Below are positions 35,450 to 58,498 of a DNA stretch of 64,000 nt, piece by piece (the stretch's first letter is position 1; the number at the start of each line of letters is the position of its first letter). A program made the translations under genes and the position numbers. Source of the stretch: Escherichia phage HermannAdler_Bas98; sequence record PQ850608.1; one strand, written 5' to 3'. The notes beneath the pieces were generated by a model. That model did not search any database and had not been told where the DNA came from. It was given only the letters and a program-made list of their open reading frames with translations.

Positions 35450-36133
35450 TTATTTCCCAAATGGAATATCAGTACCAGACATAAAGCGCCATGCGCCCGT
35501 AATTAAGATATGGCGAATGAAGTCAGCAATTACTTGCGGCTCAGTCTCCAATCCATTCATCAATGCCTTTTTCTGGTATTCAGCGGCGTATTCAGGAGTC
35601 CATCCGCGAGTCGCGCAAACAGCATCTTCAATCTGTTTAGACATACCAGTGCCGCGCAACTTGTTAGGACTAATAGAGAATACCGTGATGCCGTATTTAG
35701 GCGTAAGCTCGTGAGCCATCTGCTTGCTAATCATAAGCGCAGCAGCCTTGGATGCATTATAACACAAGCTGGACGTCATAGGAATATGCGCAGCGTTAGA
35801 AACGATATTGATCACAAAACCTTTGTTGTCGATAAGACTTTTCAGCGCGGCCTGAGTCGTGTTGACGAAAGAGAAGGCGTTGGTGTGCATAACGCGATTG
35901 AACTCTTCGTAGTTAACATCTTCGAACCAGTTGTTGGAGTTGACGCCAGCGCAGTTGATCAAGCCTTCTACATCATATGGGCTTAAAATTTCTTTCATCT
36001 GTTTAGCGTCGCGGACGTCATATCCGTATGCTGAATCGATTCCAAGCACGTTATGACCGTAAGCGCCAAGGGTGTCAAAAATAGATTTACCAAGACCGGA
36101 ATTGGAACCTGTTACAACAATTACTTTTTTCAT
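35450..36133 (-). CDS. short-chain dehydrogenase/reductase (SDR)
   Basis: Cofactor motif VTGSNSGLGKS (TGxxxGxG) and catalytic YNASKAA (YxxxK). Confidence 0.85.
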   Translation of the reverse strand: MKKVIVVTGSNSGLGKSIFDTLGAYGHNVLGIDSAYGYDVRDAKQMKEILSPYDVEGLINCAGVNSNNWFEDVNYEEFNRVMHTNAFSFVNTTQAALKSLIDNKGFVINIVSNAAHIPMTSSLCYNASKAAALMISKQMAHELTPKYGITVFSISPNKLRGTGMSKQIEDAVCATRGWTPEYAAEYQKKALMNGLETEPQVIADFIRHILITGAWRFMSGTDIPFGK

Positions 36134-42205: not shown

Positions 42206-43288
42206 ATGGCTAGTTTAAGAGAAGAAGCAAAAATAATCGAAGAGTTTTTGACGGAACTCCAAAGAGGCATTCCAGAAGACGAACGCGTCATGACCGTGTT
42301 TGCGCCTGAAGCGACAGTGCAGACTGACGAGCGCGGCAAGAAGATCAACAGCAGCTTCTGGCCTAAGCCTTGGAAGTTGGGCAAGTCGCTCATGCAGCAC
42401 CAAAACGGCTATGCGTGCATCAGTTCAATGCGTAAGTCTCCCAACCCAAAGACGGGTGAGATGCGATACTGGCGTACAGAGTCGGCCTTTGGTCACGGCA
42501 TGGCGATGATGGTCGACGACATCGGTCACGGTAAAGGGTCCAAAGGCGATTTAGATTTGGAATTCTTTTTTGAGCGACTGAAGCCGACTGTCATCGTCGA
42601 GACTTCACCGAACAACCACCAGCTTTGGTACTTCTTTAAAGAACCGATTGACCATCTTATTCAGTTCAAAGCGTTCCTTGGGTCTTTCGTTAACATGGTA
42701 CTCAAGAAGGGCGGCGACAACACGATTAAAGACGTAACGCGCGTGGGCCGTGTTCCTGGGTGCATCAACAACAAGCGTGTGACTCACGACGGCCCCTATA
42801 AATATGTCGATGAGAACGGCGACCCGTTCCGCTGCCGACTTGTCCATGCAGACTACTCATTGCGCTACACCATCGAAGACATTTGTCAGGCATTTGGCTT
42901 TCACGTCGTCATGCCGCAAAAGCGTGAGATTCAAATTGACGTCGATGAATACAAGTATGATGCTGTTTGGTATAAAATAGCCCAGCAGATTCTATCGCGC
43001 AACAAAATGGGTGAAGGGTCTGATGGCGACGTCATCGAGAACATGTCAGGCAAGTGCCGCATAATCTGTCCTTGGGGTGAAGAACACACCAACGGCGACC
43101 CGTATGGCGCTTACTTTCGCGGCCCTATTCCTGGTGCAGAACATGAGTTTGTGTTCGGTTGCGCCCACGACTGTCACCGGAAAGGGGAAGGCAAGAAAGG
43201 TTGGACTGCTTTTGTTGAAGCAATCGTCATGCCTTATATTGAGAATCAACTTGACATGATAAATCGTCGTGCAGGTGGCATAAAATAG
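42206..43288 (+). CDS. RepB'-like / archaeo-eukaryotic-type primase with C-terminal Cys/His cluster
   Basis: MMVDDIGHG and IVETSPNNHQLWYFF resemble the catalytic DxD and ETSPGN motifs of RSF1010 RepB'-type primases. C-terminus has CPWGEEH ... CAHDCH. Confidence 0.5.
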   Translation: MASLREEAKIIEEFLTELQRGIPEDERVMTVFAPEATVQTDERGKKINSSFWPKPWKLGKSLMQHQNGYACISSMRKSPNPKTGEMRYWRTESAFGHGMAMMVDDIGHGKGSKGDLDLEFFFERLKPTVIVETSPNNHQLWYFFKEPIDHLIQFKAFLGSFVNMVLKKGGDNTIKDVTRVGRVPGCINNKRVTHDGPYKYVDENGDPFRCRLVHADYSLRYTIEDICQAFGFHVVMPQKREIQIDVDEYKYDAVWYKIAQQILSRNKMGEGSDGDVIENMSGKCRIICPWGEEHTNGDPYGAYFRGPIPGAEHEFVFGCAHDCHRKGEGKKGWTAFVEAIVMPYIENQLDMINRRAGGIK

Positions 43289-44597: not shown

Positions 44598-46268
44598 ATG
44601 TCAATTAATAATGACAATCTTCCAGAGGATACAGGTGATGAATTTGGTGCAATCTTTGACGAAATTCAAGATGCAGGCGTTTCGGAAGAAATGCAGGCAG
44701 CAGAGCAGCAAGGCACCAGAGCTAAAATCAGCCTTCAACACAAAGCCGTTGAAAAAGATTCAGAGCGCATGGAATGCTACGGTGAAGAAGACTTGGTTGA
44801 AAGAGCACGCTTGCTCGCCTCACTTCAGGTAATCAAGTTCCCTCACTACAAGCCTACCAAAGATGACTTCGTTCTACAGGCAGACCGGACGAGTGACATG
44901 AACCGTTATGCGGTTTTCGACGCGTTGTTTGATAAGGGAAGTGGCGTTGTTCCATTCCCTCACAAAGATACTTTTCGTGGGCGCTTAGTCGACCATCGCG
45001 GCGAAACTTTCACCGACCGGACGTTGGAAGTCACAGAGATAGTTGCCGCTGTCGACGCAGCAGGTCTGTCCAACCCAAACTCACGTCAGGTAGCTCAATC
45101 CTATAAGGAATGGGCTATGCGTTATCAGCGTGACGACCTGATGGACTTCTTCTACAAGAAGCTGCCTGAATGGGACGGTACTGCGCGCATTGAGAAATAC
45201 CTTATCGAGCTATTCCGACCGTTCGATACAGAGTTAAACCGACAAATCGGTGTGTATTTTTGGCTATCGCTCTACAACCGACTGACCAACCCTGGCTGTC
45301 AAGCGCCAATCTCCATCGCGCTCATCGGCGGCCAGAACGCAGGGAAGAGTTATTTTAGCAAGCTACTTTGCGAAGCTATTATGAACGACCGCCACGCAAC
45401 ACCGATTCCGTTGAACTTAGCCGCGCAGAACTTCAACCCGTTCTTGCGAGCTATTACGGGTCGCTCAATTATCGCGAACGTCGGCGAGATGACAGGCTTT
45501 AAAAAGGCCGACATCGAAAACATGAAAGCATTCCTGACTAAGACGGAAGATGACCTGGACTTCAAATTTGAAGATACTCAGGTTAAACCACGCCAGTGGA
45601 TTGCTATCATGGACGGCAACGAATACGCAGGCATGCAGCGTGATGACACGGGCAACCGTCGTGTGTATCCTATCTTTGTTGGCCAACTCGCTGACAAGGA
45701 CGGGCAACCGAACTGGTCGAAAGATTTCCAAGCTGACCTTTCCACTTTGAAAGAAGACGTTTGGCAGTTGATGGCTGAGTGCGCTGCATGGATGGAGAAG
45801 CACGGCGAAGCAGGCTATAACGCGTTTGTTGGTGAAACATCTCGCATGCTTACTGAGTTCAGTAAAAACGAAATGGAACGTGCACGCGGCGTTATTCGTG
45901 ATGAGATGGTTGACAACGACCTTGTTGAAGTCGTCATCACCGCGCCTTATGACCGACATCACAGCGGACGCTGGCACATCACCAGTGGTGCTATTGCTAT
46001 GGGATTCAGAGCGAAGTGCGGCAAGTCGCCTTTCTCTCGTACCCTTGCGCCGCACATGTCGAAGCTTGGTTTTGAGCCTGCGACCTATCGCAACCAGCGC
46101 GGTTACTTTACGCCGCTGATTAAGAATGAAGCAGGGGAATACATTTCCGACTTGATGACCATCTTAGCGTATCTTATCCGTGATGAGTCTGACCCTGAAG
46201 ATATTGAATTCTTGAAGAAGGTTATCGAGCGTAAACGTTCTTTGGGAAGAGATAAGGATGAATTCTGA
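44598..46268 (+). CDS. VirE-like P-loop NTPase (primase-associated helicase candidate)
   Basis: AGGAGG SD. Walker A GGQNAGKSYF and DDTGNRRVYPIFV resemble the virulence-associated protein E / D5-type family. Confidence 0.65.
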   Translation: MSINNDNLPEDTGDEFGAIFDEIQDAGVSEEMQAAEQQGTRAKISLQHKAVEKDSERMECYGEEDLVERARLLASLQVIKFPHYKPTKDDFVLQADRTSDMNRYAVFDALFDKGSGVVPFPHKDTFRGRLVDHRGETFTDRTLEVTEIVAAVDAAGLSNPNSRQVAQSYKEWAMRYQRDDLMDFFYKKLPEWDGTARIEKYLIELFRPFDTELNRQIGVYFWLSLYNRLTNPGCQAPISIALIGGQNAGKSYFSKLLCEAIMNDRHATPIPLNLAAQNFNPFLRAITGRSIIANVGEMTGFKKADIENMKAFLTKTEDDLDFKFEDTQVKPRQWIAIMDGNEYAGMQRDDTGNRRVYPIFVGQLADKDGQPNWSKDFQADLSTLKEDVWQLMAECAAWMEKHGEAGYNAFVGETSRMLTEFSKNEMERARGVIRDEMVDNDLVEVVITAPYDRHHSGRWHITSGAIAMGFRAKCGKSPFSRTLAPHMSKLGFEPATYRNQRGYFTPLIKNEAGEYISDLMTILAYLIRDESDPEDIEFLKKVIERKRSLGRDKDEF

Positions 46269-46915
46269 TGAATAAAGCAATCAACATCGCTAAATTCTTT
46301 CAACATCTTGGTGAACTGAACAAAGAAAGTGACGTTCACGGCGAAGAAATGAACCGGATGATCTCAACCGTGTTGCGTGGCTTTGGTTATGATAAGGACT
46401 CAATCACTTGCAAGCGTACAAAGCTTGTTGATGAGTCTTATCTTTACTACGTAGAGCTGCGCATCGGGAAAGATGTGATGATCATTGACCCTAAACTGGA
46501 AGGGGCGCACTGTTTTGGCGCTCACCCTCGTGCGAGTGAATTCAAGGGGCGCGGTCGCAACCGAATCCAGAAGCTTGATGACGCAGGCGACTTGAACATT
46601 GCAATGTTCCTTAAAGAGTTCCTTGCGCTACCGAAGGTTGCATCATCCACTGGCCGTGATGACCCTTGCAAGATTGGATTCAGAACTAAAGATTTGCGCA
46701 ATGCGCTACGCAAGAAGGGATTTGTGCCTTCTTATGACAACGTCGCCGCGCTGATGGCTTCAATGGAGGAAGCTGAAGCAATGGATAAAGTGCGCGGCTA
46801 TTTCCTGAATACAGGCTTCACCATGTATGAATGGCACACGAAGGGATTGACTGTCGCCGACTTCATCTATTCATTAGAGCAGAAGTATGTACGCAATATG
46901 CAGGCCACAGGATAA
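46268..46915 (+). CDS. hypothetical protein
   Basis: 215 aa. TGATG overlap with the upstream gene. Confidence 0.5.
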   Translation: MNKAINIAKFFQHLGELNKESDVHGEEMNRMISTVLRGFGYDKDSITCKRTKLVDESYLYYVELRIGKDVMIIDPKLEGAHCFGAHPRASEFKGRGRNRIQKLDDAGDLNIAMFLKEFLALPKVASSTGRDDPCKIGFRTKDLRNALRKKGFVPSYDNVAALMASMEEAEAMDKVRGYFLNTGFTMYEWHTKGLTVADFIYSLEQKYVRNMQATG

Positions 46916-53550: not shown

Positions 53551-53999
53551 TGGGTAACAAGCTTATCGCCGCTGGTTGGGCCATACCGAAGTGGGCTCAT
53601 CGTGCGCACTACTTTGATGAAGGAGAAGTGCAAAGCCTTTGCGGTCGCGCAACATACTTTGGTGATGAGCGCGTCAGCGGCGATTACATCGACTCGCTTT
53701 TAGGCAAAGGTGATTGCAAGAAATGTCAGGATATATTAAGAGATATTCTAACGCAAAAAGGACTGCTTGAGCTTGATGAGTCGGAGGAAGTAATAGAGCT
53801 TAAGCTTGAAGCCAATCACCTTATTAATATGTTCAAGAATTATTACTCAACGAATATGCGCTCAAAGATGCGTGAGGAAGTAATAAAAGAGGTGCTCACT
53901 TACAATCCGTTAAGGATGAATAAAACTAAACTGAAGAAGTTTAATGCAATAGTAAGAAAGGAATTTAGACGGCTTGGAGTGAAGAATTTTATATTTTAA
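53547..53999 (+). CDS. hypothetical protein (possible zinc ribbon)
   Basis: 150 aa. SLCGR ... CKKC. Last gene before terminator 54016-54040. Confidence 0.45.
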   Translation: MMGNKLIAAGWAIPKWAHRAHYFDEGEVQSLCGRATYFGDERVSGDYIDSLLGKGDCKKCQDILRDILTQKGLLELDESEEVIELKLEANHLINMFKNYYSTNMRSKMREEVIKEVLTYNPLRMNKTKLKKFNAIVRKEFRRLGVKNFIF

Positions 54000-54015
54000 T
54001 TATGATTAATGTTAA

Positions 54016-54040
54016 GAGGGCCGATTGGCCCTTTTTATTT
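54016..54040 (+). terminator. intrinsic terminator ending the small-gene array
   Basis: GGGCC-gatt-GGCCC followed by TTTTTATTT. Confidence 0.7.
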
Positions 54041-54151
54041 GCCTGTGTAATGGGAGGCTTTTGTGGTTATTTACGATTCAAGGCTGTAATTTAAGAGAGC
54101 GAAAATATTATAATAATTTATCAAGATTATTGCATATTGTGGCAATCAACG

Positions 54152-54782
54152 TTTATACGTATTTATGACAGTTTAATCCACTAAATAATACGGATAGAAC
54201 AGTGAGGAAAATACAGCGGTGTATTTTAGTGTAAATATTGAATCAAAAATAAATAATTATGGTGCTATTATATACGCAGATTGTTTGTAATTTATAGGAT
54301 ATTTTATCGTGGAGTATTGGCTAACGGTGCGTTAGCCGTGGGTCTTGGTGCTTGTGGTGTTGATGCTCAGAATTTTAATAATGTTTTTAGTTTTAGTAAT
54401 CGTAGTCAATGATGATACGTATAAGAAAATGAGAGTCACCCCTTCACAGGATATTGTACCGTGGCCCTGTGGTGCGCCGCGCCTGGGATTGCTGGTATAC
54501 ACTGGTGCTATTTTGCCGCGAAGGCAGTCATTCATACGTATCATGACGTATCATTGGGCTATTGATTTATAAGGAAAAATACGCTGATACGGATGATACG
54601 GGTGCAAACATAATATATATAGAATTCCAGAAAATTAATTAACTCCATTTTGAATTAATTTAAATTAATTTTTTTCTACATCCTCATACTTATACTAAAC
54701 TTATATTCATACGTATCATCCGTAAGATATAAGTAAAAACAAGGACTTGCGGCAATACGGATGATACGTCATGATACGCTTC
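54152..54782. repeat. iteron/AT-rich element, copy 2, with outlying half-sites
   Basis: ATACGTATCATGACGTATCAT at 54533-54554, GATACGGATGATACGG at 54586-54602, an A/T core at 54605-54677, CATACGTATCATCCGT at 54708-54724, ATACGGATGATACGTCATGATACG at 54755-54778. Outliers are TTTATACGTATTTATGAC at 54152-54169 and AATACGGATA at 54187-54196. Confidence 0.8.
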
Positions 54783-54943
54783 GACCAGCCAGCAGCGGCT
54801 AAGTCATTGATTTGCATAGCAAGCGGCGAAAGGGATGGATTTCTTTTATACGTATCAAACAGTACACCACGCACCACGGTCCGCAATCCTATTTGCAATA
54901 TGATTTGTGTACGTTTATAGCCATAATGAACATCAATCTGCAC

Positions 54944-54972
54944 TTGAATATAATGTCCATCCATTGTATAAT
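54944..54972 (+). promoter_or_regulatory. sigma70-type promoter upstream of the TerS-like gene
   Basis: TTGAAT, 17-bp spacer, TATAAT. The predicted start site lies just before the first ATTTGCACTAT pair. Confidence 0.5.
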
Positions 54973-54992
54973 TCACACTATTAATTTGCACT

Positions 54993-55481
54993 ATGGGATT
55001 TTGCACTATGAGTCAAGATTATGTAGCGATGCCTGAAGACTTTGAAGACCCGCGATTCGCAGAGCACAATCAGGCTTTATTCGATGAGTTCATTGACCTT
55101 GTTATTCAGGGTCATGACATGCGCGCAGCTTTTGCACTAGTATTTGGAATGGAAGTTGCAACGGATAACTACACTGGCCAGCGAATCCTTTGCACGCAAC
55201 GCAATCCATACTACAAGATGCGCTTCAAAAAGCGTATGGAAGAGATGCCACTCAAGGATTTGTGGAGCGTAAAAGGTGCAATTCACAATTTGGTCAAGCT
55301 TGTGCGTGATCCAGAAGTCGCGGCGTCAGCCAAGCTTAATGCTATTCGTGAACTGAATATCATCTACGGCATCACGATGATTGATGAAAACGGCAATAGT
55401 AAAATGGGCCGTTCTATGGACGATTTCTACAAGGATTTTGGAGAGGCTGCCAAAGAAGGAGAGCAATTCTCCCGCCACTAG
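54993..55481 (+). CDS. small-terminase-like protein (tentative)
   Basis: HDMRAAFALVFGM ... QRNPYYKMRFKKRMEE ... DLWSVKGAIHNLVKLVRD ... AKLNAIRELNIIYGI has the HTH plus oligomerisation-helix pattern of TerS proteins. The start may instead be ATG 55008. No adjacent large terminase. Confidence 0.4.
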   Translation: MGFCTMSQDYVAMPEDFEDPRFAEHNQALFDEFIDLVIQGHDMRAAFALVFGMEVATDNYTGQRILCTQRNPYYKMRFKKRMEEMPLKDLWSVKGAIHNLVKLVRDPEVAASAKLNAIRELNIIYGITMIDENGNSKMGRSMDDFYKDFGEAAKEGEQFSRH

Positions 55482-55500
55482 CCAATTTGCACTATAAAAC

Positions 55501-55534
55501 GGCCCTAGAACACATGTTCTCCACTTCTAGGGCC
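55501..55534. terminator. 10-bp-stem hairpin (minus-strand terminator, possibly bidirectional)
   Basis: GGCCCTAGAA, 14-nt loop, TTCTAGGGCC. On the minus strand it is followed by GUUUUAUAG. Confidence 0.5.
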
Positions 55535-55595
55535 ATCGGTAATACGACGGGGAAGGTCGCACCCATAAACGCGTTAGAAAGTGTATTATTATAAG

Positions 55596-55859
55596 TCATC
55601 TTTTAGTCGCTTTACGTAACAATTTACGACCTTCAACCGTCCAATCGAACGACTCCACCAGCAGATTCGCACTATAACCTAAGACGATGCGCCCTTTCTC
55701 GTTATCGACCCGCCAACAAGTCTCGAATAGCATTCGATTTGCACTATTAACTATTGCCGCAACGCGCGTAGGGTAAGCGCAATTTGCACTATGGTCGTAA
55801 AGGGATAAGGTGCGACCACTTCCGATGGACAATGTAGCGATGAGAATAAGCGTATTCAT
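55596..55859 (-). CDS. hypothetical protein with hydrophobic N-terminus
   Basis: 87 aa starting MNTLILIATLSIGSG. Carries three copies of the ATTTGCACTAT motif on the opposite strand, each read as SAN. Confidence 0.4.
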   Translation of the reverse strand: MNTLILIATLSIGSGRTLSLYDHSANCAYPTRVAAIVNSANRMLFETCWRVDNEKGRIVLGYSANLLVESFDWTVEGRKLLRKATKR

Positions 55860-55880
55860 AAGCCACCAATTTGCACTATG

Positions 55881-55902
55881 AAAAGCGACCCCGAAGGGCC
55901 GC
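55881..55902 (-). terminator. intrinsic terminator after 55910-56536
   Basis: Minus strand: GCGGCCC-UUCG-GGGUCGC (one G-U pair) followed by UUUUCAU. Confidence 0.6.
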
Positions 55903-55909
55903 CATTCGA

Positions 55910-56536
55910 TTAGATAATCTGGAAGGTGTAGGACTTGTTGCCGAACTCGAAGTTCAAGCGTCCAGCTTCTTTAAGCTTCATGCGGAAGCGAATGTGCTTG
56001 CTATCCGGTAATCCCAGCGCGGCGAAGGCTACGCGGACCGATTTGAACTCGCCTACACCCTCGACCATAACGCCGTTACGGGTGAGACGCTTTTGCGCCA
56101 CTTCCTTATTATCCCAACTTTTTGCAATACCTTCGCTATTCGAACGGCGATGGGAAGGAGTTCCATTTTGCACTACGCAATTTGCACTATCGTTTAAGCC
56201 GCTCTTAACGAAGGCTTCATACTCTTCATCGCTCATCGCGTCGAGTTCTTCCTGGGTCGGCTCAGCCTTTTTAACGACCGCACGCGCCTTATGCGTTTTT
56301 ACATCACTGGACACTTCCTCACGCGGCTTCGCGTCGGGAATGGGCGATTCGTTGGACGGCTCATCGAGCGCGTTTAAGGACTCGATTAACGCGATTACGC
56401 GAGTCTCGGCGGTCCGGCGGTCCGCAAATTTCTTAATCGGCTTCGAACCGGAATTTGCATTATAAAATGCAACGAGGTCGGCGGTCTTAGTTGCGATAAC
56501 GTCGCCGCTAGTAGAAAAGCGATTTAAGCTAACCAT
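55910..56536 (-). CDS. hypothetical protein
   Basis: 208 aa. RBS context TAGGAGTTTATTATGG is shared with 56617-56931. CpG-rich codon usage. Confidence 0.5.
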   Translation of the reverse strand: MVSLNRFSTSGDVIATKTADLVAFYNANSGSKPIKKFADRRTAETRVIALIESLNALDEPSNESPIPDAKPREEVSSDVKTHKARAVVKKAEPTQEELDAMSDEEYEAFVKSGLNDSANCVVQNGTPSHRRSNSEGIAKSWDNKEVAQKRLTRNGVMVEGVGEFKSVRVAFAALGLPDSKHIRFRMKLKEAGRLNFEFGNKSYTFQII

Positions 56537-56616
56537 AATAAACTCCTATTTGTTAGGGCGCTAGGCGCGAAAGAATTTTATTAAAGCGCCGCGCACGACG
56601 CTCTAAAAATCCTCTC

Positions 56617-56931
56617 TTACTCTTCGTCGTCTTCGATTAATTCGAGGGCGAAGGCGTAAGCTTTGCTATCGTAATTAACTAAAACGGCGAGTTCGAACTC
56701 GTTAATAAACGCCGTTTTACCGCATAAATTTAATTCCGCATCGACTTCGAAGAATCCGTTTTCGTCGCGCTCTAAGCGAGAAGCAGCGAGTTGCTCGATT
56801 ACCGTCGCGTCGTTAATTTCTTCGCCTAAGCGAACGCCGGAGAATTTCGCGAGAATTTCGCCGTAAGTAAGCGTAACGCCCTGGACTTCGGCGGCGGCGT
56901 TTTCGAGGGTAAAGCGGGTAACGATAGCCAT
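56617..56931 (-). CDS. small acidic protein (104 aa)
   Basis: Ends LIEDDEE. Driven by the minus-strand copy of the promoter-leader cassette. SD is AGGAG. Confidence 0.55.
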   Translation of the reverse strand: MAIVTRFTLENAAAEVQGVTLTYGEILAKFSGVRLGEEINDATVIEQLAASRLERDENGFFEVDAELNLCGKTAFINEFELAVLVNYDSKAYAFALELIEDDEE

Positions 56932-56955
56932 AATAAACTCCTAGTTGGGAGAGGC

Positions 56956-57038
56956 GTTAACGACCTATTCGTTAACTCATCCCGTCCCGATATGAGTACA
57001 TTATAATATAGTGTAGAAAAAAGTAAAGCACTTTTTCG
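56956..57038 (-). promoter_or_regulatory. promoter-leader cassette P3 (minus strand)
   Basis: Minus strand: AAAAAGTGCTTTACT, 16-bp spacer, TATAAT, then CATATCGGGACGGGATGAG, then hairpin GTTAACG-AATAGGT-CGTTAAC (56976-56956), then AACTAGGAG SD. Confidence 0.65.
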
Positions 57039-57071
57039 ATAAAAATGCGATAAATTATTTTATCTTTTTTC

Positions 57072-57117
57072 TTTACTTCTTCGTACACTCGCGTATACTT
57101 GTTTATATCGAGACGGG
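57072..57117 (+). promoter_or_regulatory. promoter-leader cassette P1
   Basis: TTTACT (57072-57077), 16-bp spacer, TATACT (57094-57099), then TATATCGAGACGGG (57104-57117). Confidence 0.65.
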
Positions 57118-57155
57118 CGATGGCCCTTTCTTCTACTAGCATCGGGAGCTTTATT

Positions 57156-57458
57156 ATGACTACTTTAATCTCTTCCATCCTTACTTACGACGAAGACCGC
57201 TTAACCGTTCGCTCTCTTATCGCCGCCGTTAACGCGGAACTAGAATCTAGCGCCATTAAGGTCCGCGCGGTCGCCTTCATCGGCCTTTCCTTCGACGATA
57301 TGAAGTATGCCGAACGTAGCGCCATCCGCTTCGCGAAGACCGACGACGAAGCCGTTACCCTTATCGAGACGGTTACGCCGCGCGGCGAAGCGTTAATTAT
57401 CGTCGAGTATATCGACGTAGAAGGCGATAAATCTTATAAACATTTTATCGCAGAATAA
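57156..57458 (+). CDS. small acidic protein (100 aa)
   Basis: GGGAG SD before ATG 57156. Downstream of cassette copy P1. The track start 57099 lies inside the promoter. Confidence 0.55.
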   Translation: MTTLISSILTYDEDRLTVRSLIAAVNAELESSAIKVRAVAFIGLSFDDMKYAERSAIRFAKTDDEAVTLIETVTPRGEALIIVEYIDVEGDKSYKHFIAE

Positions 57459-57459
57459 C

Positions 57460-57542
57460 GAAAAAAGTGCTTTACTTCTTCGTACACTAAGACTATAATG
57501 TTTTATATCGAGAGGGGATGAGGTAGCGAATAGGTCACTACC
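57460..57542 (+). promoter_or_regulatory. promoter-leader cassette P2
   Basis: AAAAAAGTGCTTTACT, 17-bp spacer, TATAAT (57494-57499), then TATATCGAGAGGGGATGAG, then hairpin GGTAGCG-AATAGGT-CACTACC (57522-57542), then AACTAGGAG SD. Confidence 0.65.
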
Positions 57543-57566
57543 CTCCCGACTAACTAGGAGAATATT

Positions 57567-57857
57567 ATGATTACTTTAGCCGCTATCCGTTCCGCTCGCG
57601 TCGAAACTTCCGAAAACTCTAACGTATTTGGCGAAAAACTTAAAAACGTTTATCTCTTTAACGTAGATGCGACTATCGAGGAGCTTCACAGTCCTATCGA
57701 TTTTAGCGAATTTACGGAACTCGAAGAGGAAGATATTTCTACCTTCCGCGTTACTATCGAAGGCAAGGTTTATTTTGCTACGGAGTTCGGCGGCGAATAT
57801 CTCGCGGTATCCGAAGGCGAAGGCCGTTACTCTTTCTTTAAAATCGTTTCCTTATAA
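57567..57857 (+). CDS. small acidic protein (96 aa)
   Basis: TAGGAG SD. Downstream of cassette copy P2. Followed by terminator 57877-57902. Confidence 0.55.
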   Translation: MITLAAIRSARVETSENSNVFGEKLKNVYLFNVDATIEELHSPIDFSEFTELEEEDISTFRVTIEGKVYFATEFGGEYLAVSEGEGRYSFFKIVSL

Positions 57858-57876
57858 TACCCTTCCGTTACTAATA

Positions 57877-57902
57877 GGCCGCGCTTAGTCGCGGCTTTTC
57901 TT
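57877..57902 (+). terminator. intrinsic terminator
   Basis: GCCGCG-cttagt-CGCGGC followed by TTTTCTT. Confidence 0.65.
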
Positions 57903-58021
57903 CGTCCCTATCTCGATGCGCTCCTACGCGAAAACTCCTTTATCCTTCCCTTCGTCGTCGCATAATCTTCTTCGAGATGCGTCTTAGTTCGCATAACAGG
58001 TATTACGTTAAATGGAGAACA

Positions 58022-58102
58022 TCGCGTAAGTCCTTGTTTTATATAGACACCTATATCGGACCGTTAGGGCGGGTCGCGTAAGTCGTTGTTTTATAAAGGC
58101 AC
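58022..58102 (+). repeat. 29-bp direct repeat pair
   Basis: TCGCGTAAGTCCTTGTTTTATATAGACAC (58022-58050) against TCGCGTAAGTCGTTGTTTTATAAAGGCAC (58074-58102). Confidence 0.8.
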
Positions 58103-58220
58103 AAAACTTTCCCTTCGTTCCGAACTAAAACGAGAAATATGCCGACCCTTCGCCCGAAAATAGTACGTATGCGAAATTACATTCATCTCGAATAATCCCT
58201 CCCGATATTATCCTACACGC

Positions 58221-58283
58221 AATCATTCGCTTTCGAATCATTATGCTTCATATTATTATGCGTCGAATCATTCGCTTTCGAAT
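58221..58283 (+). repeat. 18-bp direct repeat pair, internally palindromic
   Basis: AATCATTCGCTTTCGAAT at 58221-58238 and 58266-58283. Each contains ATTCG-CTTT-CGAAT. Confidence 0.8.
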
Positions 58284-58498
58284 TGTAACGCTGGAAACTG
58301 TAACGTCGATTGATTATTGCGTTCGTGTGGTTTTTATGGCATGGGTCTTTTGGTGCGTTTTGCTACTTGATGGAATTTGCGGTACACTAATCAAAATACG
58401 ACACATTTGGTCCACTAACTTTTCAAAGAAAAAGTCCTAGACAGTACCGTACTATTTTGTACCCACAGGAAATTTGCAGTACACTCCTGAGCGGCAGG

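Follow-up and report, generated by a model that had tools for sequence, protein, structure and literature searches.

A duplicated iteron element in Escherichia phage HermannAdler_Bas98 as a candidate pair of Rep-loaded origins, one of them coinciding with the chromosome end of related phages

What is the role of a non-coding array of repeats located just upstream of the small terminase gene of Escherichia phage HermannAdler_Bas98, and why does the same genome carry a second element of the same design? This question is addressed here for sequence record PQ850608.1, of which a stretch of 64,000 nucleotides (the window, to which all coordinates refer) was analyzed. The window represents most of the ~68.4-kb genome of this E. 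coli myophage of the genus Wifcevirus, which is distantly related to the Pseudomonas PB1-like phages (PMC11990801); ~4.4 kb with the large terminase gene fall outside of it. Its nearest record, with 98.5% identity, is that of phage ManiWeber/Bas99 (PQ850618). In the following, the element under review, upstream of the small terminase gene terS, is termed T, and the other copy, upstream of the head protease gene, is termed H. The original prediction, made from the letters of the DNA alone, had offered paired origins, paired enhancers for packaging and head genes, or recombination or packaging landmarks as explanations. As set out below, T and H are interpreted with a probability of roughly 0.5 as two bidirectional replication origins loaded by a Rep-type helicase, with T also carrying the cut site of the terminase.

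Element T (54405-54860) is composed of iterons with the core CGTATCA and a tandem period of 9-10 bp, which are arranged around an A/T-rich core (54603-54707, 82% A+T), the proposed DNA-unwinding centre, containing a TATAGAATTC box at 54618-54627. Directly adjacent to this core, two tandem reverse iterons GATACGGATGATACGG (54584-54602) are found on the left side and the forward iteron(s) ATACGTATCATCCGTAAGA (54709-54727) on the right side. Further outward, these are followed by two tandem forward iterons, ATACGTATCAT and GACGTATCAT (54534-54554), on the left and by three reverse iterons, AATACGGAT, GATACGTCAT and GATACGC (54755-54779), on the right. All blocks listed in the original prediction were recovered at their positions and the label iteron is apt; overlooked had been an outlying reverse iteron TGATGATACGTATAAG (54405-54420) and an outlying forward iteron ATACGTATCAA (54848-54860), which is conserved in all relatives compared. 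A GC box on the forward strand, TGGTGCGCCGCGCCTGGG (54470-54494), has a similar counterpart in Serratia phage MyoSmar. The weak distal half-sites TTTATACGTATTTATGAC and AATACGGATA about 370 bp upstream (54152-54196, comprising 54152-54169 and 54186-54196) are indeed present, but only in the lineage-specific flank shared by HermannAdler_Bas98 and Bas99, while other Wifceviruses carry unrelated sequence there.

The repeats stand out clearly from the rest of the window. The 8-mer CGTATCAT occurs 14 times compared to 2.0 ± 1.5 expected occurrences, a count reached by none of 100 shuffles, and 13 of these 14 copies lie inside 2197-2480 or 54405-54780. Likewise, when the 7-mers of the window were screened without bias for the strongest spatial clustering, the iteron words at T and H emerged, plus one overlapping word at 1846. 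The cores of both elements are the two most A/T-rich 100-bp segments of the 64 kb (0.84 and 0.83; next 0.76), with that of T ranking second. DnaA boxes (TTWTNCACA) and GATC are absent from T and H, and an origin of the DnaA-dependent or iteron-plasmid type was rejected as a candidate, given that neither element contains DnaA boxes or GATC clusters. A single IHF-like match in the elements is not meaningful on its own.

Copy H (2176-2500), positioned upstream of the head-protease promoter (2533-2561), starts with a hairpin (2176-2191) and displays forward iterons at 2200-2231, reverse iterons at 2258-2280, an A/T core with 90% A+T (2290-2372), and forward (2375-2399), reverse (2429-2447) and again forward iterons (2457-2478), as well as GCCGC boxes at 2188 and 2282 and GCGGC boxes at 2416 and 2489. 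Alignment of T with H gave 76% identity over about 290 bp in the same layout. Hence, the homology claimed for T and the 2197-2480 copy holds true, whereas calling both copies near-identical was an overstatement. Similarly, their distance of 52 kb merely reflects where the window starts, since on the ~68.4-kb genome H is located ~16.2 kb to the right of T. Of both copies, H is the better conserved one: it is 98-99% identical among seven Wifceviruses and thus conserved like the head protease gene, compared to 84-94% for the gene upstream of H. As H follows the same design with no reported genome end, its conservation would be explained most simply by a function that T and H share and that is unrelated to DNA ends.

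A scan of IMG/VR with the exact 17-mer CGTATCATCCGTATCAT returned Wifcevirus contigs and scattered, chance-like single matches. This word is genus-specific, and distant relatives therefore had to be found through proteins. The absence of the paired arrangement from relatives had been named in advance as speaking against the prediction; it is, however, kept in at least five lineages, each of which uses its own repeat word in both copies. In Pantoea phage Kyle (TerS 43% identical), which was deposited with both copies of its 3,603-bp terminal repeat, one element straddles the repeat boundary and its paralogue lies upstream of the head protease gene, both being built from the word GGTTATT. In Pbunavirus (PB1/PS44), the pair is made of GGTAATTTGG-type words, in Serratia phage MyoSmar, with a repeat determined by PhageTerm, of TACTTTTCG/AAGTAA words, and in one metagenomic lineage of TTGCGG words. 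Local alignment of T with H within each of 12 genomes from five lineages resulted in scores of 58-130 (shuffled null about 21 ± 3, maximum 38), whereas T of one lineage aligned with H of another yielded scores of only 20-31. Such likeness within but not across lineages is expected for a shared, lineage-specific binding protein. Apart from its two elements, the strongest 7-mer cluster of Kyle is formed by eight copies of AAAGCTG within 600 bp at ~55479-56080 (~35480-36080 of the Kyle locus L051), in or near gp079.

Within the genus, T was aligned among 12 Wifceviruses, Bas99 as the closest relative being left out. The right half of T, situated within the terminal repeat of the virion DNA described below, is highly conserved, while the left half has been replaced by at least three unrelated sequence types. 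Each of these types retains the core-adjacent reverse pair CGGATGATACGGAT along with forward blocks further out, and the pair itself (54584-54602) is kept in all 12 genomes despite their unrelated flanks. In contrast, the ~80-bp insertion carrying the forward pair 54534-54554 is confined to HermannAdler_Bas98 among the aligned phages. The concerted evolution of T and H within lineages, together with the left flank of T, an apparent recombination breakpoint at which no fewer than three unrelated types of sequence occur, could also be ascribed to a duplication kept alike by gene conversion, i.e. to a recombination hotspot or the relic of a mobile element with repeats devoid of any protein-binding function. 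This explanation is considered highly improbable, as block order and orientation persist in at least five lineages that are no longer alignable, core-proximal iterons survive complete replacement of their flank, and the conservation of H equals that of an essential structural gene. Moreover, it leaves unexplained the strict polarity of the GCGGC and GCCGC boxes discussed further below.

Which protein, then, could read the lineage-specific words? A candidate iteron binder is encoded at 44598-46268 (forward strand) in the form of a VapE/Rep-like superfamily 3 (SF3) helicase of 556 amino acids (Pfam PF05272). By sequence, this protein matches Rep1 of the staphylococcal pathogenicity island SaPI1 (PDB 7PDS) with E = 4e-11. 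Its structure model (mean confidence, pLDDT, 91) displays a helix-strand-helix-helix-strand-strand pattern typical of a winged helix at residues 436-504, and the best fold match of the model is again 7PDS, covering about 480 columns and thus nearly the whole Rep1 chain (E = 3e-16, template modelling (TM) score 0.62). SaPI Reps are self-loading helicases that read short iterons by means of a C-terminal winged helix (Qiao et al. 2022, PMC9371898). The corresponding origin, located just downstream of rep, consists of 6-12 short iterons and an A/T-rich centre with at least two iterons per side in opposite directions (PMC9371898). Both T and H exhibit this layout of two iteron sets around an A/T centre, in case of T with the reverse pair 54584-54602 and the forward block 54709-54727 facing each other across the core, and the genome encodes a Rep-type helicase with a predicted C-terminal winged helix. 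Additionally, a RepB-type DNA primase (42206-43288, forward strand; Pfam PF16793, E = 2e-36) is present as the likely partner of the Rep-like helicase. Another protein of 215 amino acids without family match (46268-46915, forward strand) overlaps the stop codon of the rep-like gene and could be a helicase partner as well; it is conserved in loci L140 and L141 and in Kyle, and its homologue in L141 is the last gene before T.

The position of the elements relative to rep differs between lineages. In the window, rep ends at 46268 and T lies at about 54400-54860. Elsewhere, about 650-1000 bp separate the end of the rep-like gene from terS, and this spacer holds the element, just as SaPI origins directly follow rep; this applies to MyoSmar, to all loci of Pbunavirus, to several metagenomic lineages (about 900-1000 bp in these phages) and to two integrated elements. 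Arrays of small genes are inserted between rep and T only in Wifcevirus and Kyle, and H never adjoins rep. As T is thus found between rep and terS in most lineages, gene adjacency is not decisive for either Rep or TerS as the binding protein. Co-variation did not single out the binding protein either: lineage-specific words are shared by T and H, yet every phage protein including TerS diverges in parallel. In L140, for example, the iteron word is the same with 55% identity in the C-terminal domain of Rep and 65% in TerS, while in L141 the word is changed; Rep and TerS diverge in step. The two integrated elements, both encoding integrases, reside in Burkholderiales, namely in Cupriavidus pauculus (PJRP01000009; L142, 6001-8854) and Caballeronia sp. 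(JALQDQ010000018; L143, 6001-8859). Each contains a cassette of Rep-like helicase, iteron element and TerS homologue, with CTTAAGTG and GTAACTC as their respective words, and in both cores the shared motif AAATGCAAA precedes a short CCCGNCGG-type GC box. These integrated elements may represent satellite-like islands related to this phage group.

A second class of motifs mirrors the iterons. To the right of the T core, three GCGGC boxes with the consensus YYGCGGCAA (54746-54828, starts at 54749, 54795 and 54823) all point forward, while the left-side GCCGC boxes at 54476, which is held by the GC box 54470-54494, and at 54515 are in reverse orientation. Across 14 elements, 48 of 48 boxes on the right are GCGGC and 29 of 32 on the left are GCCGC within about 350 bp of the core (Fisher p = 1e-18); the loci showing this polarity also include L045-L052, L066, L101 and L140-L143. 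No such GCGGC/GCCGC polarity exists genome-wide, and the YYGCGGCAA boxes are conserved across lineages with differing iterons. They may serve as start sites for the RepB-type primase. Since two classes of motifs flip their orientation at the core, a process starting there and running in both directions is indicated, which suits a bidirectional process and not one-way packaging.

Based on these observations, T and H would function as follows. The predicted C-terminal winged helix of the Rep-like SF3 helicase would read the lineage-specific iterons, and two helicase rings would load to the left and right of the ~100-bp A/T core, as the arrays flanking it point in opposite directions, and melt it. 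Subsequently, the RepB-type primase would prime synthesis outward. Hence, among the explanations offered originally, paired origins appear supported by the SaPI-type anatomy, the encoded Rep-like helicase and the mirror symmetry about the core.

In Wifcevirus, T would fulfil a second task that H lacks, namely to provide the site TTAACTCC|ATTTT (54639-54651, forward strand), where the terminase would cut to make the left end of the virion DNA and thereby the start of a terminal repeat. Three related phages, Mansfield, WFH and WFC, have their virion DNA begin at the position corresponding to 54646|54647 of the window, inside the T core, and this left end is the start of a direct terminal repeat of ~3.7 kb; it is from these three phages that the end position in HermannAdler_Bas98 is taken by homology. 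Base 1 of Mansfield, assigned by PhageTerm, aligns to 54647 (terminal repeat of the virion DNA according to the genome announcement, PMC6753283). WFH and WFC, deposited with both repeat copies of 'about 3.7 kb' (Korf et al. 2019, PMC6563267), begin at the base equivalent to 54647 with the junction ...AATTAACTCC|ATTTT.... Within T, the cut is located ~10 bp or less from the centre of the core, 44 bp to the right of the core-proximal reverse iterons, 62 bp to the left of the core-proximal forward iteron, and 361 bp to the left of the start of terS (55008). All 12 Wifceviruses compared share an unchanged core of the cut motif, AACTCCATTTT, and a metagenomic relative with a TerS of only 65% identity retains the extended motif AAATTAACTCCATTTTGAA without change. 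As an exact 13-mer, TTAACTCCATTTT occurs just once in the window, and alignment of T with H confirmed that H lacks the cut motif. With this motif being specific to T, the shared iterons themselves are not the cleavage signal. Accordingly, the term packaging landmark used earlier is justified for T, with the virion left end in its A/T core in Mansfield, WFH and WFC, but not for H. In the Bas99 record, which was deposited as circular, the small terminase is labelled hypothetical, so that the closest public record annotates neither the 3.7-kb terminal repeat nor terS.

The stretch matching the direct terminal repeat (54647-58350, forward strand, about 3.7 kb) ends at the boundary GGGTCTTT|TGGTGCG; this right boundary is at 58350 in Mansfield and WFH and about 83 bp further in WFC. 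Around it (58350|58351; region 58221-58485), pairs of AATCATTCGCTTTCGAAT (58221, 58266), TGTAACG (58284, 58299) and ATTTGCRGTACAC (58375, 58472) are observed. A repeat finder gave no direct repeats at the right boundary, whereas a regular-expression search confirmed an exact 18-bp pair. The right boundary of Kyle displays AATCATT-type words and GTACACTAATCA, and the right-boundary region thus appears conserved as well. Furthermore, TGGTGCG is found both at the right boundary (58351) and 177 bp to the left of the left end (54470). Immediately before the chromosome end, where the unique sequence has its right end, the DNA (54041-54602) is hypervariable and resembles a recombination breakpoint abutting the cut site.

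The location of the end inside T raises the possibility that the entire element is a terminase site of the pac/cos type. Here, the flanking repeats would bind the TerS ring with one helical turn per subunit, and the large terminase would cut at TTAACTCC|ATTTT and package rightward through terS. This explanation is possible though doubtful. It draws on the left end, which falls in the core in three Wifceviruses and has its equivalent in Kyle and MyoSmar, where the repeat boundary lies in the A/T core of the respective T, about 30-40 bp from one array. The point equivalent to the T cut is also where several Pbunavirus records begin (PS44, Ab27 and others), but these are deposited and perhaps unmeasured starts, and the genome ends of Pbunavirus are disputed (PMC12390725, PMC12345254). 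Also in its favour, T is linked to terS in all lineages examined, with terS beginning 360-390 bp downstream of the end in the three terminal-repeat genera and about 616 bp downstream in Pbunavirus. The identity of terS itself (55008-55481, forward strand) is secured by its match to PDB 7UXE (E = 7e-34), the small terminase decamer of phage E217 (PMC9611059), which turns the TerS-like gene of the original prediction into a true small-terminase homologue. SPP1 pac, with the order pacL-pacC-pacR, offers a precedent for binding sites flanking a cleavage site (PMC9611059), and a tandem period of 9-10 bp would suit neighbouring helix-turn-helix domains of a TerS decamer.

Thus, T shares with known terminase sites that a virion end maps in it, as judged by homology, and that a small-terminase gene is close by. 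In contrast to the polar pac and cos sites known so far, however, it is mirror-symmetric for two motif classes, iterons and GCGGC boxes, and it is not unique, given the full copy at 2176-2500. For this second copy, more conserved than T and with no reported end, the terminase explanation has no ready function; H could at best be an uncut second TerS site acting as synapsis partner, as proposed for T4 gp16 and its targets in genes 16 and 19, or as a regulatory or decoy site. A second origin explains H naturally, whereas H is awkward for a terminase site. Moreover, the homologous TerS of E217 showed no appreciable DNA binding in vitro (PMC9611059), the T-specific cut motif argues against the iterons as cleavage signal, and TerS is not needed to account for the anatomy and the encoded Rep-like helicase.

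Several points nevertheless weigh against T and H being Rep-loaded origins. In the window, T does not adjoin rep, as about 8.3 kb of small genes lie between them, and to a slight degree it also counts that T is linked to terS in every lineage, including Wifcevirus and Kylevirus where it is separated from rep. The period of 9-10 bp and the word length of 7-11 bp exceed the 5-6 nt of SaPI iterons. GC skew and cumulative skew give no origin signal, although skew is uninformative on origins here since it follows gene orientation. Furthermore, the winged helix of the 556-amino-acid protein is a predicted one, the ends of HermannAdler_Bas98 are placed via relatives with the nearest of them, Bas99, deposited as circular, and we infer iteron binding, core melting and replication in this phage group. 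Finally, an end within ~10 bp of the core centre is either a coincidence or requires an added hypothesis of coupling.

The position of the cut at the core centre could accordingly be either an inherited coincidence of two signals packed into a spacer of ~1 kb or a sign of coupling. In the latter case, origin firing and end formation would be mechanically linked: re-replication from T would open a bubble across the ~3.7-kb repeat, and the two sister duplexes would be cut at different places, one in the melted core at TTAACTCC|ATTTT, where the left fork is located, and one at the right boundary, leaving both neighbouring genomes of the concatemer with a full repeat. Such coupling is speculative and regarded as unlikely. 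If true, it would provide an origin-driven solution to the long-standing problem of duplicating long direct terminal repeats during packaging, and headful-packaging Pbunaviruses would use the same site as pac start.

The genes and signals around both elements relate to the remaining proposal of paired enhancers. Upstream of T, a terminator hairpin read from the sequence (54018-54036, forward strand; GGGCC-GATT-GGCCC followed by T5) closes an array of small early-type genes, and WFH carries an annotated terminator at the equivalent place; downstream, a sigma-70-like promoter (54944-54972, forward strand; TTGAAT, 17-nt spacer, TATAAT), invariant in relatives, precedes terS. Both the terminator and the promoter described initially could thus be located. 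As promoter and terminator scans of both element regions gave promoter-like matches that overall are not above chance, only two promoters matching the consensus at 10 of 12 positions were kept, both of them invariant in relatives. In principle, T and H could be enhancer-like platforms for a phage transcription factor, which would control these promoters (54944-54972 for terS and 2533-2561 for the head protease operon) and thereby co-regulate packaging and head genes. Both copies are indeed placed between a terminator-like hairpin and such a 10/12-consensus promoter, and this placement is kept in Kyle, PS44 and MyoSmar. Still, we consider an enhancer role improbable: the elements span 300-450 bp around an A/T core of ~100 bp, which lies 200-300 bp from the promoters, and their mirror symmetry is centred on this core and not on the promoter. 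Besides, the integrated elements carry the cassette between rep and terS with no head operon nearby, and next to the chance-level promoter matches no candidate regulator was identified.

None of the short reading frames in the T region was accepted as a gene: they do not resemble genes and overlap with iterons, and on the left side the DNA containing them lacks conservation among relatives. One frame of 53 amino acids (54771-54929, forward strand), annotated as CPT_Mansfield_001 in Mansfield, begins within the reverse iterons and is probably not a gene; the same probably applies to four further small gene calls in the T spacer of Bas99. An Rfam scan of 53800-55200 (E <= 1) gave no match and thus no hint of any known structured RNA.

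Phage therapy makes wide use of the PB1-like phages (Pbunavirus) and their enterobacterial relatives, which are now also being rebuilt by synthetic means. At the same time, origin of replication and packaging signal of PB1-like phages are unknown (PMC12390725, PMC12345254), and the small terminase of E217 has been solved without a known DNA target (PMC9611059). For both signals, the present analysis provides conserved candidates with exact coordinates and lineage-specific words that are open to mutation or swapping. It further suggests that a replication module of staphylococcal satellites, comprising a Rep-type self-loading helicase and a bipartite iteron origin, may be present in two copies in a large group of virulent Gram-negative myophages. 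Should the coincidence of origin centre and chromosome end prove mechanistic, this would be of direct relevance to the question of how long terminal repeats arise.

How do T and H compare to known systems? The searchable literature yielded no description of these elements. SPP1 pac (pacL-pacC-pacR) and lambda cos (cosQ-cosN-cosB) resemble T in being cut within a few hundred bp upstream of terS and in having the cut flanked by repeated protein-binding words, and the large terminase of the group resembles that of SPP1 according to the Mansfield annotation. Those sites, however, are polar, unique per genome and made of unrelated left and right parts, while the two sides of T mirror each other and a second copy is located 16 kb away. 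Moreover, the phage has exact ends and a 3.7-kb terminal repeat, which are neither headful nor cohesive. Two related target sequences of a small terminase, some kb apart in one genome, are known from phage T4, where gp16 has been proposed to bring related sequences of genes 16 and 19 together in a 'twin ring pac synapsis' (PMC9611059). In contrast to T and H, the T4 sites are short, lie inside genes and have no flanking A/T cores, and T4 has no fixed ends.

Closer to a role in replication are systems with two distant homologous iteron elements served by one initiator, one element being in or near the replication genes and the other in a late region. Examples are SPP1 oriL and oriR, bound by G38P, as well as ori and crr of P4, bound by the alpha primase-helicase. 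Their initiator families and iteron layouts differ from those described here, and neither SPP1 oriL/oriR nor P4 ori/crr is known to have a genome end inside an origin. At the concatemer junction of phage T7, the short-repeat arrays SRL and SRR lie next to the terminal repeat, and end formation requires origin-like promoters close to the ends. Short-repeat arrays flanking the boundary of a direct terminal repeat are thus common to T7 and T, and the idea that terminal repeats depend on local DNA synthesis for their formation holds for both. The T7 repeat, however, measures 160 bp, its arrays are not known to form mirror-symmetric iterons about a core rich in A/T, and no Rep-type helicase is known to take part.

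The origins of SaPIs and other phage-inducible chromosomal islands (PICIs; Ubeda et al.; Qiao et al. 2022) share with T and H the element-specific short iterons flanking an A/T-rich centre, a helicase homologous to Rep1 and a separate primase gene. In most relatives, the element also lies directly 3' of the rep-like gene, and its word varies by lineage. Differences are that the host of T and H is a ~68-kb virulent myophage instead of a satellite, that two copies exist per genome with the element in question 8.3 kb away from rep, and that words of 7-11 bp replace iterons of 5-6 nt. The phage has furthermore added mirror-oriented GCGGC boxes and a virion DNA end in the core of one copy. Altogether, T and H are best classified as a variant of the SaPI-type Rep/iteron origin. 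Its new features are that the element is duplicated, that it occurs in a large group of virulent myophages, that the mirror-oriented GCGGC motif has been added and that a chromosome end is centred in one of the two copies.

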